Notes under the pieces: generated by a model
Told to the model about the DNA's origin: nothing
The model's database searches: none
What the model saw: the letters and a program-made list of their open reading frames with translations, nothing else
Source of the DNA: Eubacteriales bacterium
GTDB lineage: Bacteria; Bacillota; Clostridia; Christensenellales; CAG-314
DNA: 64,000 nucleotides
Reading direction: 5' to 3'
NCBI GenBank assembly: GCA_035446985.1
Contig: DAOTGG010000002.1
Location: forward strand, 1,925-65,924
In this document: positions 12,959-31,710 of the stretch, in pieces
How positions within the stretch are numbered: position 1 is the first letter of the stretch
Layout: each line of letters opens with the position of its first letter
Translations under genes and position numbers: made by a program

Positions 12959-14743
12959 TTATTCGCAAAGTTTTTTGAGTTGGTCAAGCGTGTCCATAAA
13001 TGATTTTGCAACCGTTTCAAATGGTTCTGCGGTCGTAAGATCAACGCCTGCCGCTTTCAATTCGCTTACGGGGTCCATACTGCAACCCATTGTCAAGAAC
13101 TTTTTGTATCGGGTAACGGCGGGTTCGCCTTCCTTTAATATTTTTTGAGCAAGAGTAATCGCGCTGGTAATTCCCGTCGCGTATTTATAAACGTAAAACG
13201 CGCGGTAGAAATGCGGTATGCGGCTCCATTCGTATTTGATTTGTTCGTTATGCACAACTTCGTCGCCATAATATTTTTTATTTAATTCGTAATATTTTTC
13301 GTTAAGTAAATCAGCTGCAAGAGGTTGACCTTTTTCTGCGTAATCGTGCGCTATCGCTTCAAATTCCGCGAACATTGTCTGACGGTACATAGTCGTGCGT
13401 ATCATATCGAGATAATAAGACAACAAATATTTTTTAACATTTACATCCGTAACCGTGTTGAGCAAATAGTTAAGCAGCAAGACTTCGTTGCAAGTGCTGG
13501 CAACTTCCGCCACAAAAATTTTGTATCCAGCTTTTGCATAAGGCTGTGTGTTGCTTGAATAATAGCTGTGCATACTGTGACCAAGTTCGTGAGCTATCGT
13601 AAAAATATCGTGTGTGGTTTTTTGATAGTTAAGCATTACGTACGGGTGAACTCCGAAAACGCCCAGCGAATATGCGCCGCTGCGTTTGGTCGGCGTCTCG
13701 TGAACGTCCATCCATCTTTCGTCTTTTGCTTTTTTGAGAAGCGCCTGATAATCCTCGCCGAGAGGTTTTAATCCTTTAAGCACATACTGGAACGCTTCTT
13801 CAAAGTCGCAGGACAAATCCGCGTTTTCTATCATCGGAACAGACAAGTCGTACATATTAAGCTCTTTTACTTTCAGCACTTTTTTACGCAGCCCGATATA
13901 TTCGTGCAAAGGCTCGAGAGTGCCGTTGACGCTTTTAATCAAATTGTCATAGACGACTTTGTCAACTTTTTCATTAAATAAAGCGGCTTCCATTGCGCTG
14001 CCAAAGTTTCTTGCTTTCGCGTTGAAAATATCTTTTTTTACGCTTCCTTCATACACCGCAGAAATAGTGTTGATTAAATCAATAAATCCTTTGTAATAAC
14101 GCTCAAAAGCGGCTTTTCTAACGCTTTGGTCGCGGTTTTGAAGGCAGGTGGCGTATGAGCCGTGAGTCAGTTTAACTTCTTTTCCGTCCACGGTAATAGA
14201 ACCAAAATCTATGTCGCCGCTATCGAGACGATTAAAAATTTCCTGGAAAAATCTTTCAAAATCGCCGCACATAGCCATCAGCTTTTCTTCGTTTTCAGAT
14301 AAAATATGTGCCTTGCCGTCGCGCATATCTTTTAATCTTTCCGTGTAATCGCTGAATGCGGGGTCGGCTATCATTTTGTTAAATTCATCTTCGGAAAGTT
14401 TGCTCATTTCCGGATCGATAAAAGCTATTTTTTCCGCGAATTTAGAAAACATAGACGAAACCTTGCCGTAACGGGTTTGAGCGTCGGAATCTTTGCTGTC
14501 TTCGCAATAATTCATAAATGCGTAACTTTCGAGACGGTCGAAAGACAACAGAAGTGAATCGAGTTTTCTCATCATTTCCAAAATAACTTTAGGTTCATTC
14601 AGTTTGCCCTTATAGCAATCAAAATCACCTATTCGATTTGAAGCGGCTTCAAATGACGTCTCCCAGTCTTTTACCGTTTTAAAAATATTGCCGAGATTCC
14701 ATTTGTAATTTTCAGGAATTTCCGTTCTGTTTGTGTAACTCAT
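12959..14743 (-). CDS. pepF: Oligoendopeptidase F (M3B family)
   Basis: 594 aa with the HELGHSMH zinc-binding motif. The overall length and N-terminal helical domain are typical of PepF. Confidence 0.85.
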   Translation of the reverse strand: MSYTNRTEIPENYKWNLGNIFKTVKDWETSFEAASNRIGDFDCYKGKLNEPKVILEMMRKLDSLLLSFDRLESYAFMNYCEDSKDSDAQTRYGKVSSMFSKFAEKIAFIDPEMSKLSEDEFNKMIADPAFSDYTERLKDMRDGKAHILSENEEKLMAMCGDFERFFQEIFNRLDSGDIDFGSITVDGKEVKLTHGSYATCLQNRDQSVRKAAFERYYKGFIDLINTISAVYEGSVKKDIFNAKARNFGSAMEAALFNEKVDKVVYDNLIKSVNGTLEPLHEYIGLRKKVLKVKELNMYDLSVPMIENADLSCDFEEAFQYVLKGLKPLGEDYQALLKKAKDERWMDVHETPTKRSGAYSLGVFGVHPYVMLNYQKTTHDIFTIAHELGHSMHSYYSSNTQPYAKAGYKIFVAEVASTCNEVLLLNYLLNTVTDVNVKKYLLSYYLDMIRTTMYRQTMFAEFEAIAHDYAEKGQPLAADLLNEKYYELNKKYYGDEVVHNEQIKYEWSRIPHFYRAFYVYKYATGITSAITLAQKILKEGEPAVTRYKKFLTMGCSMDPVSELKAAGVDLTTAEPFETVAKSFMDTLDQLKKLCE

Positions 14744-27757: not shown

Positions 27758-28009
27758 CGTATTTACGGGTTTTTTTATTCGCATTTTAAAATTATATTTC
27801 TAATCATATTGATTAAAACACGTTTATTAGTTTTCTATTTTTCTTAACTGATTATCGTCAGTATATCTCTTAATATCAAAATGTTTATCAATCATAAAAT
27901 TAATATATTTTAGCTTTCATAGCAGCTGCAAAAATTGTATATTGACTTTGAGTATAAAATATTATAATATCTAGTATATAATAAGTATAAAAAATTAAGG
28001 ACGCTAAAT

Positions 28010-28795
28010 ATGAGTAAAAATATTAAAACGATTTGCTTTGTTCTCGTTGCGGTTTTGCTGTCGACGAGTCTATTCGGCTGCGCGCCAGAGCAGGAATGGA
28101 CGGACGAAAACGTAATTTTTACGTACGATGATAACGGCGACGTAACAATTTTTTTCCCCGACAATTTTGTGTACCCAAAATATCCTATAGCTTGGACTAT
28201 TGAATTCAATGTCCGTGAATATCCTTATTTAGCCGACTTTTATGAGTGGCTTGATTTAACACTTGAACAGAATAATTTCGGTTCTGTTTACCTAATAAAA
28301 GTAATTAAGATGCTCACCGTCAAGGAAGCAGAAAAATTAGACGCATACATGTATCCTATGAGCAGTTATTCGACTTATTATGAAGTAGCAGTTATTTATG
28401 ATTATTTAAATGAGAAAGAAATTAACCAAACACATTATTTTAGATTTGCTCGTGGAACTGCTGAAAACCAAAGAAAAGGATTACCCCCTTTTCAAAACGG
28501 CGATACATTTATATCAATTTGCGACTCCATTGACTATAGAATTCTTAGCTGTATAGTTATGGAACCTTTTTATATTTTAGATGAGGAAATCAGCAACGAT
28601 ACTTTCGTATATAAAATGAGTAGAACAAGCCTAGATATGGCAGACATCGCAATTGAGCTTTTGGAAGAAGAAAAAATAATAGAATCCGCTTATAAAAAAA
28701 ATCCAAGAACATTTTCTCAAAAGTTTAAACTCGGCGATTTGATCAATTTTATAAGGACTGCTTTGGAGGAACGGGGGTATGAAATACAAAAATAA
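28010..28795 (+). CDS. Lipoprotein, paralog 1 of a tandem three-member family (unknown function)
   Basis: 261 aa with a lipobox (LLSTSLFGC). It shares the blocks TYDDNGD, LYLIKVIK..T..EAEKL, YYEVAVIYDYLNEKEIN and KF+LGDLINFI...LEERGYEIQK with the two downstream genes. Confidence 0.7.
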   Translation: MSKNIKTICFVLVAVLLSTSLFGCAPEQEWTDENVIFTYDDNGDVTIFFPDNFVYPKYPIAWTIEFNVREYPYLADFYEWLDLTLEQNNFGSVYLIKVIKMLTVKEAEKLDAYMYPMSSYSTYYEVAVIYDYLNEKEINQTHYFRFARGTAENQRKGLPPFQNGDTFISICDSIDYRILSCIVMEPFYILDEEISNDTFVYKMSRTSLDMADIAIELLEEEKIIESAYKKNPRTFSQKFKLGDLINFIRTALEERGYEIQK

Positions 28796-28958
28796 AAAGT
28801 TTTTTTCATCCCTCTTTTACATAAGAAAGCAAAATATCTAATTTTTTAGTATCTTTTCCATATTGTTGTTTGTCTAAGATATTGATTTTAGAAAGCAATA
28901 TAAATAGTTTTTTTGTGTAAGGAGTTTATGTATGAAATTAAAATTTAAAATTATCTGC
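28763..28958. repeat. 196-bp perfect direct repeat, copy 1 (3' end of paralog 1, intergenic region, 5' end of paralog 2)
   Basis: TTGGAGGAACGGGGGTATGAAATACAAAAATAAAAAG...GGAGTTTATGTATGAAATTAAAATTTAAAATTATCTGC is identical, by eye, to 29691-29886 (offset 928 bp). Confidence 0.85.
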
Positions 28959-29723
28959 GTTTGTCTCGCGGCGGTTTTGCTGTGGACGTGTCTATTCGGC
29001 TGCGCCAATAAAACGCTTTGGAGCAAAGATTACGTCGATATTACATACGATGACAATGGCGACCCTATTATTAATTTTTCTGACAATCTTTGTTACGCTA
29101 GCCAAAACACGCAAGATGTACACTTTTTTACATGCGCACTTTATTCAATAAATTTTCAACAATCTTTAGATGCTAGTATAGGTCAAGGATATATGGATTC
29201 ATTATATCTTGTAAAAATAATTAGACGTCTTACTGAGGACGAGGCAAAAGCAAATGGTTTTTTCCCGAATGAAAGTTTTTGGAAATATAATAACTCCACT
29301 TTTTATGAGGCTGTTATTGTTTACGATTATCTGCGCGAAAAAGAAATAAACGAAGTAATATACTATGCTAGCTATGGAAAAGTAGATTGTCAAGTAGATG
29401 GATTACCGCCTTATTCTTCAGGAGACTGTTTTATAACTTTTATTCATAGAGGAATGATATATCCATATATCGCGGGCGGGGTGGTAATAGTCGTTTACCC
29501 CGAAAATAATAAAGAAATAACAATGGATACAAGCGTATATACTTTGATCGGCGTTGATAAGAATTTATCGTCTATCGAGCTAGAAATTTCAGACGAAGAA
29601 AAAATATGTCAAAGCGAATTTGAGAAAAATCCGCGTATTTATTATCAAAAATTTCGTTTGGGAGACTTGATTGAATTTATAAAACTAAACTTGGAGGAAC
29701 GGGGGTATGAAATACAAAAATAA
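28932..29723 (+). CDS. Lipoprotein, paralog 2 of tandem family
   Basis: 263 aa with a lipobox (LWTCLFGC). The N-terminal ~55 aa and the C-terminal LEERGYEIQK are nearly identical to paralog 3. The centre is divergent. Confidence 0.7.
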   Translation: MKLKFKIICVCLAAVLLWTCLFGCANKTLWSKDYVDITYDDNGDPIINFSDNLCYASQNTQDVHFFTCALYSINFQQSLDASIGQGYMDSLYLVKIIRRLTEDEAKANGFFPNESFWKYNNSTFYEAVIVYDYLREKEINEVIYYASYGKVDCQVDGLPPYSSGDCFITFIHRGMIYPYIAGGVVIVVYPENNKEITMDTSVYTLIGVDKNLSSIELEISDEEKICQSEFEKNPRIYYQKFRLGDLIEFIKLNLEERGYEIQK

Positions 29724-29886
29724 AAAGTTTTTTTCATCCCTCTTTTACATAAGAAAGCAAAATATCTAATTTTTTAGTATCTTTTCCATATTGTTGTTTG
29801 TCTAAGATATTGATTTTAGAAAGCAATATAAATAGTTTTTTTGTGTAAGGAGTTTATGTATGAAATTAAAATTTAAAATTATCTGC
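29691..29886. repeat. 196-bp perfect direct repeat, copy 2
   Basis: Identical to 28763-28958. A third, degraded copy of the first ~90 bp follows paralog 3 (30609-30700). Confidence 0.85.
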
Positions 29887-30642
29887 ATTTGTTTAGCAGC
29901 GATTTTGCTGTCAATGTGTCTATTCGGCTGCGTCAATAAACCGCTTTGGAGCGAAGATTACGTCGATATTACATACGATGACAATGGCGACCCTATCATT
30001 AATTTTTCGGACAACTTGACTTATACGCCGTATGAAGGTGAGCTAGGCTTTGCAAAATATAACATAGGTCCGCGTTCCGAATTTTCTCAAGATTTGGACG
30101 CTGTGCTTTCGGTCAATGCATTTCAGTCACTGTATTTAATTAAAGTCATAAAACGATATACACAAGAAGAAGCCGAAAAGTTGGATATTTATATTGATGA
30201 ATACCCATATAATGAAACTGGATATTATGATGTAGTTTTGGTATATGATTTTTTAAAAAATGAAGAGGTTAACGAATCTGTTATATTTGCTGGATCAAGA
30301 TCAATAGATCAGCAAACTTATGGAAAACCCTCTCTATCAGTTGGTGATTGTTGGATAGGCATAGTTATAGAACATCCCAACATTAAAAATTTATATAGTT
30401 TTTCTTCATTAGGTTCTTATGTTAAAAATCAAGAAAATATATCGCAGGACACGTTTGTGTATGCATGGCTATATGACGACGAATTAGAGTGCATAGAGCT
30501 TGAACTAGCCGATGAAGAAAAAATTATCGAAGGTGAATTTAAAGATAATCCTTTACAAGTTAAACAAAAATTCCGTCTCGGTGACATTGTAAATTTTTTA
30601 TTAAACGCTTTGGAGGAACGGGGGTATGAAATACAAAAGTAA
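29860..30642 (+). CDS. Lipoprotein, paralog 3 of tandem family
   Basis: 260 aa with a lipobox (LSMCLFGC) and the same conserved blocks. Confidence 0.7.
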   Translation: MKLKFKIICICLAAILLSMCLFGCVNKPLWSEDYVDITYDDNGDPIINFSDNLTYTPYEGELGFAKYNIGPRSEFSQDLDAVLSVNAFQSLYLIKVIKRYTQEEAEKLDIYIDEYPYNETGYYDVVLVYDFLKNEEVNESVIFAGSRSIDQQTYGKPSLSVGDCWIGIVIEHPNIKNLYSFSSLGSYVKNQENISQDTFVYAWLYDDELECIELELADEEKIIEGEFKDNPLQVKQKFRLGDIVNFLLNALEERGYEIQK

Positions 30643-30845
30643 AAAGTTTTTTTCATCTCTCTTTTACATAAGTAATTAAAACATCTTATTTTTAGTATCA
30701 TTTTTTAATTTTGCCGAATTTTGTCGCAATATAGATTATCAGCATATAAAGCAATAAAAAAGTTAGTATAATATACAAAAGACGGTTGATAACTACAAAC
30801 CGTCTTTTTAATTATTTAATTAAATTTTCATAAAAACACAAAGTT

Positions 30846-31499
30846 TTATTCTATTATTTCTTCCTTTTTTTCTTCATTTATAACAGGCTCGGCGCGGCGG
30901 ATTTTGTGAAGCAGATCCCGCAGGAAAAACCACATTATAGCCAATATTTGCAATGTGCCGCTTATTAAAAAGATTACCCATATTTTGTCCACCGAGATGG
31001 AAAAAGTTAGATATATGGACGCTGACAAGCTCCAAATAATAATGGAAGAAACGATCCCTGTCAGCACTCTTTTTGCCCATATCGCGCTAAAAACTACAAG
31101 GACGATCGCCGCGGCGGGTATGGCGTACACAAAAGTCATCCACAGATTTGGAAGGTCGGTAAACAAAGTCAATGCTACGAAAACTATCACGGCAACGAGC
31201 CAAACTATACCCGCAGATAAAAGCGATATAAGCAATTTTCCGCGCTTTTCAAAAGGCGTCCTTTTTTTCTTTGAAGCGTTCATCAGATCGTTTATGCTTA
31301 CGTGATAAAGGCGCGCGATCTGATACAACACGTACAAATCGGGCAATCCCTCGCCCCGTTCCCATTTTGAAACGGATTTGTCAGAGTAATTCAGCGCTTC
31401 TGCTACTTGTAACTGCGTCATATCCGCAAGGTTGCGGTAAAATACCAAATTACCCGCAACAGTAGATTTAAAATCTTTTTCGCTCATTTTTTCATTCAT
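30846..31499 (-). CDS. XRE-family HTH transcriptional regulator with C-terminal multi-TM domain
   Basis: HTH: MTQLQVAEALNYSDKSVSKWERGEGLPDLYVLYQIARLYHVSINDL, followed by 4 TM helices. The start was moved to MNEKMSEK because TTGACA, 17 nt, then TATAAT sits immediately upstream (the -10 ends 7 nt before the ATG). This implies a leaderless or near-leaderless mRNA. Confidence 0.75.
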   Translation of the reverse strand: MNEKMSEKDFKSTVAGNLVFYRNLADMTQLQVAEALNYSDKSVSKWERGEGLPDLYVLYQIARLYHVSINDLMNASKKKRTPFEKRGKLLISLLSAGIVWLVAVIVFVALTLFTDLPNLWMTFVYAIPAAAIVLVVFSAIWAKRVLTGIVSSIIIWSLSASIYLTFSISVDKIWVIFLISGTLQILAIMWFFLRDLLHKIRRAEPVINEEKKEEIIE

Positions 31500-31710
31500 A
31501 AACTGTATTATATTACATTTAATCTTTATTGTCAATACTCATAAAAGGACTCTCTACCCCAAGTAGACCAAAAAAATGCTCACTCTACTAAATTCGACAA
31601 AAAAATATACACTCAAAAAGTTTTTGTAGGCGTCTTAACAGGTTTAATAGGTTGAAAAATAACATATCTTTTGATAAATTAGTACCAAACAAATAAAAGG
31701 AGACAATTAT

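Follow-up and report, generated by a model that had tools for sequence, protein, structure and literature searches.

A tandem array of three Clostridia lipoprotein genes with identical junctions and divergent cores: a possible battery of protease-binding surface proteins

The window examined is a 64,000-nucleotide (nt) stretch of contig DAOTGG010000002.1 (positions 1,925 to 65,924, forward strand) from the Eubacteriales bacterium assembly GCA_035446985.1. It contains three tandem lipoprotein genes whose ends are held nearly identical and whose centres have diverged to the level of unrelated sequence. The explanation preferred here, with confidence somewhat short of even, is that of an orphan accordion array of three TIMP/OB-like, protease-binding surface lipoproteins. 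The term 'orphan' refers to the absence of a linked protease gene. Of the parts of this explanation, the accordion mechanism is very probable from the sequence comparisons, while protease binding is proposed tentatively, from distant homologs and by analogy.

The three open reading frames (ORFs) encode 261, 263 and 260 amino acids (aa) and all lie on the forward strand, as described in a sequence-only reading of this stretch, which had noted three head-to-tail lipoproteins with an LFGC lipobox. Each signal peptide has an M-K-rich n-region, a hydrophobic core and L-F-G-C at residues 21-24, an arrangement found in all close homologs, and the paralogs are predicted to be lipid-anchored at Cys24. 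The proteins are 42-48% identical overall. All three copies are full-length ORFs on one strand and apparently form a single transcription unit. The array consists of the following elements.

28010..28795, + strand: paralog 1, core type A, 261-aa lipoprotein precursor (lipobox LFGC, Cys24); ORF matching the family profile at E 4.7e-78
28763..28958, + strand: junction copy 1, the last 10 codons and stop of paralog 1, a 136-nt spacer and the first 9 codons of paralog 2; 196/196 against copy 2
28932..29723, + strand: paralog 2, core type B, 263-aa lipoprotein precursor; ORF with an AlphaFold2 model at predicted local distance difference test (pLDDT) 87 and predicted TM-score (pTM) 0.83
29691..29886, + strand: junction copy 2, from paralog 2 to paralog 3, identical to copy 1; 194/196 in contig L008
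29860..30642, + strand: paralog 3, core type C, 260-aa lipoprotein precursor; ORF
30643..30776, + strand: relic spacer after paralog 3; first ~85 nt ~90% identical to the junction, followed by decay

The two junctions, 28763-28958 and 29691-29886, are identical over 196 nt, and not a single further base matches at either edge. The base-for-base identity first reported for them, including the 136-nt spacer and the codon coverage, is therefore exact. High similarity runs on to 29062 and 29990 (300 nt at 96%) and then collapses to ~50%, the level of an unrelated alignment. An exact run of 196 nt is expected ~1e-41 times at a core identity of 0.6, and ~6e-6 times at the 0.92 identity of the conserved block. 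The 928-bp period originally given holds from junction to junction; the starts are spaced by 922 and 928 and the stops by 928 and 919. Tandem Repeats Finder, whose longest period is 500, did not report the array.

The first ~55 codons of paralogs 2 and 3 had been put at ~90% identity. This is close for the DNA, at 92% over the first 135 nt, and too high for the protein, which has 8 differences in 55 residues (85%). Beyond the conserved block, identity between paralogs is ~50%, in agreement with the divergent cores originally described. Paralog 1 does differ at its N-terminus and upstream: the upstream region is unalignable and the first 135 nt are 69-72% identical.

Identical repeats of this kind could arise if the assembly had mis-joined or duplicated a single repeat. 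A 196-bp exact repeat is longer than common assembly k-mers, and related contigs frequently break within the array. However, both junction contexts occur in other, independent assemblies, and an artefact is therefore unlikely. Contig L008, from another metagenome, contains the end of B, the junction and the start of C at 194/196 and continues into the XRE gene that lies downstream of the array. Contig L005, from a Clostridia metagenome-assembled genome (MAG), contains the end of A and the junction at 128/138. The three ORFs are intact with distinct cores, and comparable exact runs of 101 and 221 nt are present in other genomes. The concern raised with the first reading, that the repeats might be an assembly product, is thus answered, and the probability left to it is close to nil.

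Gene ends and cores across related genomes

Nine close homologs were found among 5.8e9 clustered proteins. All are 259-263 aa long and are either unnamed or listed as 'hypothetical protein' from Clostridia MAGs. On their contigs the family occupies the same site, downstream of cysS-serS, and the cores fall into the discrete types A, B, C, C' and D, the window haplotype being A-B-C. Orthologs of paralog 1 in L001, L002 and L005 are 85-87% identical and those of paralog 2 (P0002, P0001) 78-91%. Paralog 3 is 99% identical to P0004 of L008 and 76-79% identical to the type C copies of L002 and L003.

Gene content at this site varies between genomes. Contig L002 has the order serS-A-D-C'-B-C(partial). 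Its B and C genes recur unchanged on the overlapping contig L003, which carries a sixth copy, C''; together the two contigs hold at least six copies (A-D-C'-B-C-C''). In L006/L007, serS is followed by an A/B chimera, P0001, and then by C, giving at least two copies, against three in the window. In this chimera, a type A promoter and signal peptide give way, close to the lipobox, to a type B body. In type D, the signal peptide is of B/C type and is followed by an N-terminal segment of type A, APEQEWTDENVIFTYDESGEVTITFPDNFVYPKY. The serS genes of these genomes are 92-95% identical in DNA, which marks the genomes as close relatives that differ in array content. The comparison of strains for copy-number variation, suggested when the repeats were first noted, has thus revealed such variation.

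The case for recombination is built on comparisons of identity and of synonymous divergence (dS) between paralogs and orthologs, on exact runs and on chimeric genes. In both the 5' and the 3' blocks, paralogs within a genome are closer to each other than orthologs between genomes. Over the first 135 nt of the 5' block, the pairs within a genome are 92% (W_B/W_C), 99% (S2_C'/S2_B) and 90% (S2_A/S2_D) identical, compared with 84% (W_B/S2_B) and 88% (W_C/S2_C) for orthologs across genomes. The cores, by contrast, cluster strictly by type, with identities of 90-91% within A, 79-94% within B and 77% within C, and ~50% otherwise. Nei-Gojobori estimates for paralogs 2 and 3 give a dS of 0.06-0.18 in the 5' block, while the cores are saturated, with a proportion of synonymous differences (pS) of 0.6-0.9. 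The junctions that follow type A in the window and in the MAG contig L005 differ at 7% of positions, while the two junction copies of the window are identical; the homogenisation is therefore recent.

The same pattern has appeared independently in a far more distant MAG. There, on L011, two tandem copies (T_1/T_2) share an exact run of 221 nt from -78 to +143 and are 100% identical over the first 135 nt, with cores that are 65% identical. The homogenised ends and distinct cores, the variation in copy number and order and the chimeras together show non-allelic homologous recombination and gene conversion through the terminal homology blocks. The ongoing recombination or gene conversion suggested from the window sequence is supported by this wider comparison.

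In this very probable mechanism, the 5' block (spacer, ribosome-binding site (RBS), signal peptide, lipobox and ~45 codons) and the 3' block (the last 10-30 codons and the start of the spacer) serve as the substrates for RecA-type recombination and conversion. Whole cassettes are gained, lost and reordered by this process, which also maintains the identity of the ends. Purifying selection retains the cores (A, B, C and others), which are old and divergent. Regardless of function, the locus represents a clean natural case of concerted gene-end evolution with long-lived divergent cores.

A further copy of the spacer follows the last gene. This relic spacer is 57% identical to the spacer, compared with 38 ± 7% in shuffles, and the 60 nt downstream of the last gene are 85% identical. 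It terminates at '...AGTATAA', where the other copies carry the RBS, and neither an RBS nor a gene follows. It looks like the original boundary of the duplicated unit or the remnant of a lost downstream (fourth) unit.

Within one core type, the ratio of nonsynonymous to synonymous substitution (dN/dS) between orthologs is 0.14-0.20, compared with 0.03-0.08 for serS and cysS. The orthologs are under relaxed purifying selection relative to these two genes. Their dS of 0.30-0.80 is above that of serS (0.13-0.26), which fits allele exchange, and their dN is 0.07-0.15 against 0.01-0.02 in housekeeping genes. Between paralogs, regions with measurable dS have a ratio (omega) of 0.2-0.7; in the paralog cores the ratio is not measurable, because synonymous sites are saturated. 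The diversifying selection that had been proposed is not supported by these values. One candidate for positive selection, codons 161-240 of paralog 1 against L005 (dN/dS 1.1-1.9), was rejected, as it involves few changes (dS 0.05-0.10) and is absent in other ortholog pairs.

A second locus for the family is found in the MAG STD2_106 lineage (L016 7153-9580; also L004, L012 and L015), where a single type C-like copy lies between dnaJ and PadR-prmA. In L016 it belongs to an operon with two paralogous proteins of ~255-270 aa, which have a signal peptide, a C-terminal transmembrane anchor and no Pfam match. The downstream of these ~255-270-aa genes overlaps the stop codon of the lipoprotein gene. 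These proteins are a possible partner family of the lipoprotein.

Protein family, predicted fold and linked proteases

Scans of the three paralogs against Pfam, NCBIfam, PHROGs and PADLOC gave no credible match, and in Pfam there was none at E<=1, in keeping with the earlier statement that no known domain could be recognised. Marginal PHROG matches were treated as noise. So was a match of paralog 2 alone to PDC-M16A of PADLOC, a candidate defence protein (residues 177-257, E 7.6e-4, 15.8 bits), which covers 80 residues of an 892-position profile. When 82 family members were scanned against Pfam at E<=10, the only recurrent match was the lipoprotein attachment-site model, with no NTR, TIMP, DUF576 or Inh. 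Twenty distant members scanned individually likewise had no recurrent Pfam domain beyond the lipid-attachment site. Membership of a well-characterised family, the other doubt attached to the first reading, finds no Pfam, NCBIfam or PHROG model to stand on.

A profile search of 1.84e9 representatives returned 126 proteins at E<=1e-3 and 43 at E<=1e-10. The 126 proteins share the C-terminal ~170 residues (profile positions ~88-258), and where names were found they read 'hypothetical protein', from Clostridia or Oscillospiraceae MAGs. By sequence, the paralogs belong to an undescribed Clostridia family without a database model, amounting to ~130 clusters at 50% identity. Among the 136 members collected, 49 have a lipobox and 8 match Pfam LPAM_1. 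About 46 instead have a cytoplasmic N-terminus of ~30 residues and one transmembrane helix, in the manner of anti-sigma factors. Several members reach 1,200-1,600 aa with two to three copies of the domain and are otherwise without a recognisable domain. Examples are P0013, P0016, P0017, P0025 and P0044 (1,322-1,622 aa), which are membrane-anchored with an anti-sigma-like N-terminus and have no Pfam domain along their whole length. No family member was found in phage, plasmid, IMG/VR or other viral collections, and a mobile-element origin was set aside on these grounds.

The structure of paralog 2 was modelled with AlphaFold2 from an 82-sequence alignment. The model comprises a signal helix (1-21), a conserved beta-hairpin (35-49), a variable linker (~56-88) and a beta-barrel with flanking helices (88-256). 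The C-terminal ~170 residues are modelled with confidence and are tentatively predicted to form an OB/NTR(TIMP)-like beta-barrel. In Foldseek searches of the PDB, the top matches of both models were NTR-type OB barrels (complement C345C, PCOLCE NTR and TIMP-1), followed by EutN/CcmL and SSB, none of them significant. The likeness to the NTR/TIMP module lies in an OB-type barrel flanked by helices; the best E value of 5e-3 is non-significant and no Pfam NTR or TIMP match accompanies it. Searches of viral structures and of PDB sequences returned nothing.

The indication of a protease partner comes from a distant subgroup of the family with the motif TSTxNNPVxY, to which the window subfamily aligns over 192 columns (hhalign 99.7%, E 4.7e-27). 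In all five lipoprotein-type contexts recovered for this subgroup (L013, L018, L019, L020 and L021), the next gene downstream, at 0-45 nt, encodes a metzincin-like protein with a signal peptide. In L019, metzincin-like genes lie on both sides of the lipoprotein gene. The partner proteins carry HExxHxxGxxD/H (HExGHxxGLxD/H), a conserved Met and other shared residues. They score 25.9, 24.0, 18.6 and 16.6 bits against Pfam Peptidase_M10 (cutoff 24) and also match the snapalysin and archaemetzincin models. Judged by these motifs and profile matches, they are divergent metzincins. Weak extra family matches in L013 were mostly signal-peptide alignments and were not counted.

The partner proteins are encoded at L013 8777-9535, L019 1085-1819 and 2731-3522, L020 1278-2663 and L021 1161-2297. 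They constitute a family of their own (HExGHxxGLxD/H, MCN, QGAxxILGxH) with Cys-rich CxxC tails. A type I dockerin in one of them suggests that it attaches to a cellulosome-like scaffold.

The domain is also associated with extracytoplasmic function (ECF) sigma genes. In L018, the lipoprotein/metzincin pair follows an ECF sigma gene and a gene for a DUF4367 protein, and P0134 is encoded within an operon of the ECF sigma/DUF4367 kind. L014 has an ECF sigma gene followed immediately by a gene whose product joins the domain to an anti-sigma-like N-terminus, and the gene of P0028 overlaps with the final part of an ECF sigma gene.

Possible functions of the array

Accordion-like immunity arrays are known so far for type VII toxins in staphylococci and streptococci, and the known lipoprotein protease inhibitors come from one oral pathogen of the Bacteroidota and from one locus in Listeria. 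The present locus would link the two in uncultured Clostridia. The tipC genes contain a lipoprotein signal and 5'/3' homology blocks through which paralogs recombine (PMC9484751), and the lpl/tilA arrays undergo rapid copy-number variation (PMC10730906). Like the tipC, esaG and lpl-tilA arrays, the window array consists of same-strand tandem paralogs of ~230-260 aa, with copy number that differs between close strains, chimeric genes and recombination tracts that run from the 3' end across the spacer into the next 5' end. With tipC it further shares a lipoprotein signal peptide, similar 5'/3' blocks and a variable centre. It differs from all of these in protein family and predicted fold, which are unrelated, with no match to DUF576 or TipC 6DHX. 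The window array also has no linked type VII secretion system (T7SS) or toxin and sits between serS and XRE/DegV, and in the wider family the gene that recurs beside the lipoprotein encodes a secreted metzincin instead of an LXG-type toxin.

The potempins of Tannerella forsythia are lipoprotein inhibitors with an OB-fold or eight-stranded barrel, encoded directly upstream of secreted KLIKK peptidases; one of them, PotA, inhibits karilysin, which resembles matrix metalloproteinases (PMC9890683). The distant subgroup shares with them a lipoprotein gene directly upstream of a secreted peptidase gene (M10/M7-like metzincins). The predicted fold of the family may also be a beta-barrel of OB type, and the logic would likewise be protection of the cell's own surface. 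The potempins have 98-132 residues and belong to a diderm outer membrane, whereas the window proteins have ~235 mature residues and belong to a Clostridia lineage. The window genes are also tandemly expanded without an adjacent peptidase, and inhibition by their products is a matter of analogy.

In the Mtz-Tim pair of Listeria monocytogenes, a secreted metzincin is encoded with a lipoprotein of TIMP-like predicted structure under XRE regulators, and Mtz cleaves Tim ~50 residues from its N-terminus (PMC8235301). The present family likewise comprises Firmicutes lipoproteins whose predicted structure may be TIMP-like, without TIMP sequence similarity, and which are paired in the distant subgroup with a secreted metzincin (HExxHxxGxxH/D, Met-turn). 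In both, an N-terminal segment of ~50 residues precedes the TIMP-like domain, and XRE-family regulators lie nearby. The likeness to Listeria Tim (AEO06250.1) is drawn from its published description. The Listeria order is mtz then tim, in a single-copy, phage- or mobile-element-associated locus, while in the distant subgroup the lipoprotein precedes the protease. No family member is present in phage, plasmid or viral collections, searches of phage collections with family members and the partner metzincin returned nothing, and the XRE protein of the window is membrane-bound and pairs with DegV.

Protease binding is proposed because a homologous subgroup is encoded directly upstream of metzincins and because of the analogy with potempins and Tim. 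For the window paralogs themselves it is a tentative assignment, more doubtful than probable. The products would be lipid-anchored at Cys24 and display the OB/NTR-like barrel on a tether of ~65 residues. Each paralog or core type would bind or inhibit a different secreted metzincin at the cell surface, and envelope proteins would be protected in this way. The window would then hold an orphan battery of binders without a linked protease.

A number of observations weigh against this proposal. Every structural match is non-significant (E >= 5e-3, TM-score <= 0.56), those of NTR/TIMP type having a TM-score of 0.2-0.46. The solved potempin and TipC structures were not among the matches (Foldseek top 50; PDB profile search at E<=1), and no inhibitor-like reactive loop was identified. 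TIMPs chelate zinc by a free N-terminal Cys, whereas here the Cys is predicted to be lipidated and lies ~65 residues upstream of the barrel; the zinc-chelation mechanism of TIMPs cannot apply if this is so. No metzincin-profile or HExxHxxGxx[HD] match occurs in the 64-kb window or in the contigs of close relatives, and the flanks consist of housekeeping genes (cysS, serS, XRE, DegV, YetF-like, Sir2, ECF-S, UvrA, UvrB, CoaX and similar). The window subfamily is ~20-25% identical to the protease-linked subgroup, and its function may have diverged. The use of the domain as the extracytoplasmic part of anti-sigma-like proteins beside ECF sigma genes fits sensing as well as inhibition.

Sensing is the basis of one alternative, in which the paralogs are ligand-binding envelope lipoproteins that feed a membrane regulator and have diversified for different ligands, and are not protease inhibitors. 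This would suit the ~46 of 136 members in which the domain is the extracytoplasmic part behind a single transmembrane helix, as well as P0028 and P0134 with their ECF sigma neighbours. A membrane-bound XRE regulator adjoins the array, and OB-like barrels are generic binding modules. However, the conserved partner of the XRE gene is DegV, not the array, and the pairing with a secreted protease in five of five contexts points to a protein ligand. The ECF operon of L018 itself includes a metzincin, and sensing and protease binding are not mutually exclusive. Sensing without inhibition is considered unlikely.

Of the three roles first suggested for the array, that of immunity proteins comes closest, by way of the metzincin-linked subgroup. 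In its usual form it would set an orphan array against a secreted or contact-delivered, non-protease polymorphic toxin, comparable to TipC/TelC or to TilA (DUF576)/TslA in T7SS. The anatomy is that of tipC arrays, with a lipoprotein signal, 5'/3' blocks, a variable centre, variable copy number and recombinants (PMC9484751, PMC10730906). Yet no toxin, LXG/WXG, T7SS or other secretion-system gene is present in the 64-kb window or related contigs, the proteins resemble neither TipC nor DUF576 in sequence or fold, and a metzincin is the only recurrent partner of the wider family. A non-protease toxin as the target is distinctly unlikely.

The antigenic variation first suggested has no supporting feature, and neither has phase variation. 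As a broader alternative, variable surface lipoproteins might alter what is displayed to phages or to a host, recombination making new mosaics. Surface exposure is predicted, some genes are mosaics, and allele turnover outpaces that of housekeeping genes, as the dN values (0.07-0.15 against 0.01-0.02) indicate. Unlike Mycoplasma Vlp/Vsa, the locus has no invertible promoter or inverted repeats bracketing one, no nearby site-specific recombinase, no tandem simple sequence repeat or long homopolymer switch (the longest junction homopolymer is T7) and no silent cassettes. Every copy is intact, the copies apparently share one orientation and one transcription unit, dN/dS stays well under 1, and the cores are old stable types common to strains and not newly generated. 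Only a slight probability is given to surface variation of this kind.

The protease-binding explanation also has a wider form. The array would then be the first example of an orphan, recombining battery of surface metalloprotease inhibitors based on an undescribed TIMP/OB-like domain. It would serve as immunity against the metzincins of neighbours in anaerobic consortia, and the use of the domain in ECF anti-sigma proteins would imply a protease-sensing route. This wider form is speculative and on the unlikely side. If the inhibitor explanation is true, the locus would define a bacterial TIMP-like family that is new, implicate secreted metzincins as weapons or as remodelling enzymes of anaerobic communities, and identify a branch of ECF signalling that may sense proteases.

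Neighbouring genes and spacer elements

Three further features belong to the array and its borders.

27942..27970, + strand: promoter-like site TTGACT-17-TAATAT 5' of paralog 1; consensus match only, 9/12
28919-28924, + strand: RBS AAGGAG in junction copy 1, from the spacer sequence
30777..30808, strand not assigned: hairpin with an 11-bp stem and a 10-nt loop, flanked by an A-run and a T-run; free energy -13.3 kcal/mol, z -4.8

The promoter-like site is the sole reasonable sigma-70-type match ahead of the array and lies within a 310-nt region unique to paralog 1. None of 200 shuffles was as stable as the hairpin, which is probably a bidirectional terminator closing both the array and the convergent XRE gene.

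The membrane-bound XRE regulator described immediately downstream on the opposite strand is real, and is separated from paralog 3 by this hairpin. Its gene (30846-31535, - strand) encodes an HTH_3 domain and four hydrophobic segments and is divergent from a DegV gene. The ortholog in L011, which is 67% identical, is again divergent from DegV and lies 4.6 kb from the L011 array. A role as an array component was rejected on account of this conserved DegV partner and of the position of the L011 ortholog away from the array; the XRE gene is probably a neighbour only. In this part of L011 (3628-6669 and 7492-10618), a tandem DegV duplication has an XRE-like fragment between its copies, and serS is inverted relative to the array. 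The neighbourhood there is conserved but rearranged.

Elsewhere in the window, the ORF at 12959-14743 (- strand) is the sole one of at least 150 aa with HExxH (HELGHSMH). It does not have the metzincin extension and does not match the partner-protease profile.

The spacers match no Rfam family. A predicted RNA structure in the first spacer (28812-28830 with 28918-28924; an identical copy lies 928 nt downstream) has a free energy of -28.2 kcal/mol and z -3.6 against shuffles. In it, CUCUUU just past the upstream stop pairs with the Shine-Dalgarno sequence AAGGAG of the next gene. An RBS-sequestering structure was rejected, as the pairing is non-significant in the B|C spacer of L002 and absent in L006, L011 and the relic spacer; conservation of this element is improbable.

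The box ATATTGA(C/T)TTT occurs at 27939-27949, 28879-28889 and 29807-29817, and in every spacer here and in related strains. Internal promoters for each gene were set aside, since no -10 element lies 16-18 nt from the box in the window junctions. Ahead of paralog 1 the box contains the -35 element of the promoter-like site, and it may be a decayed promoter or a regulator site.

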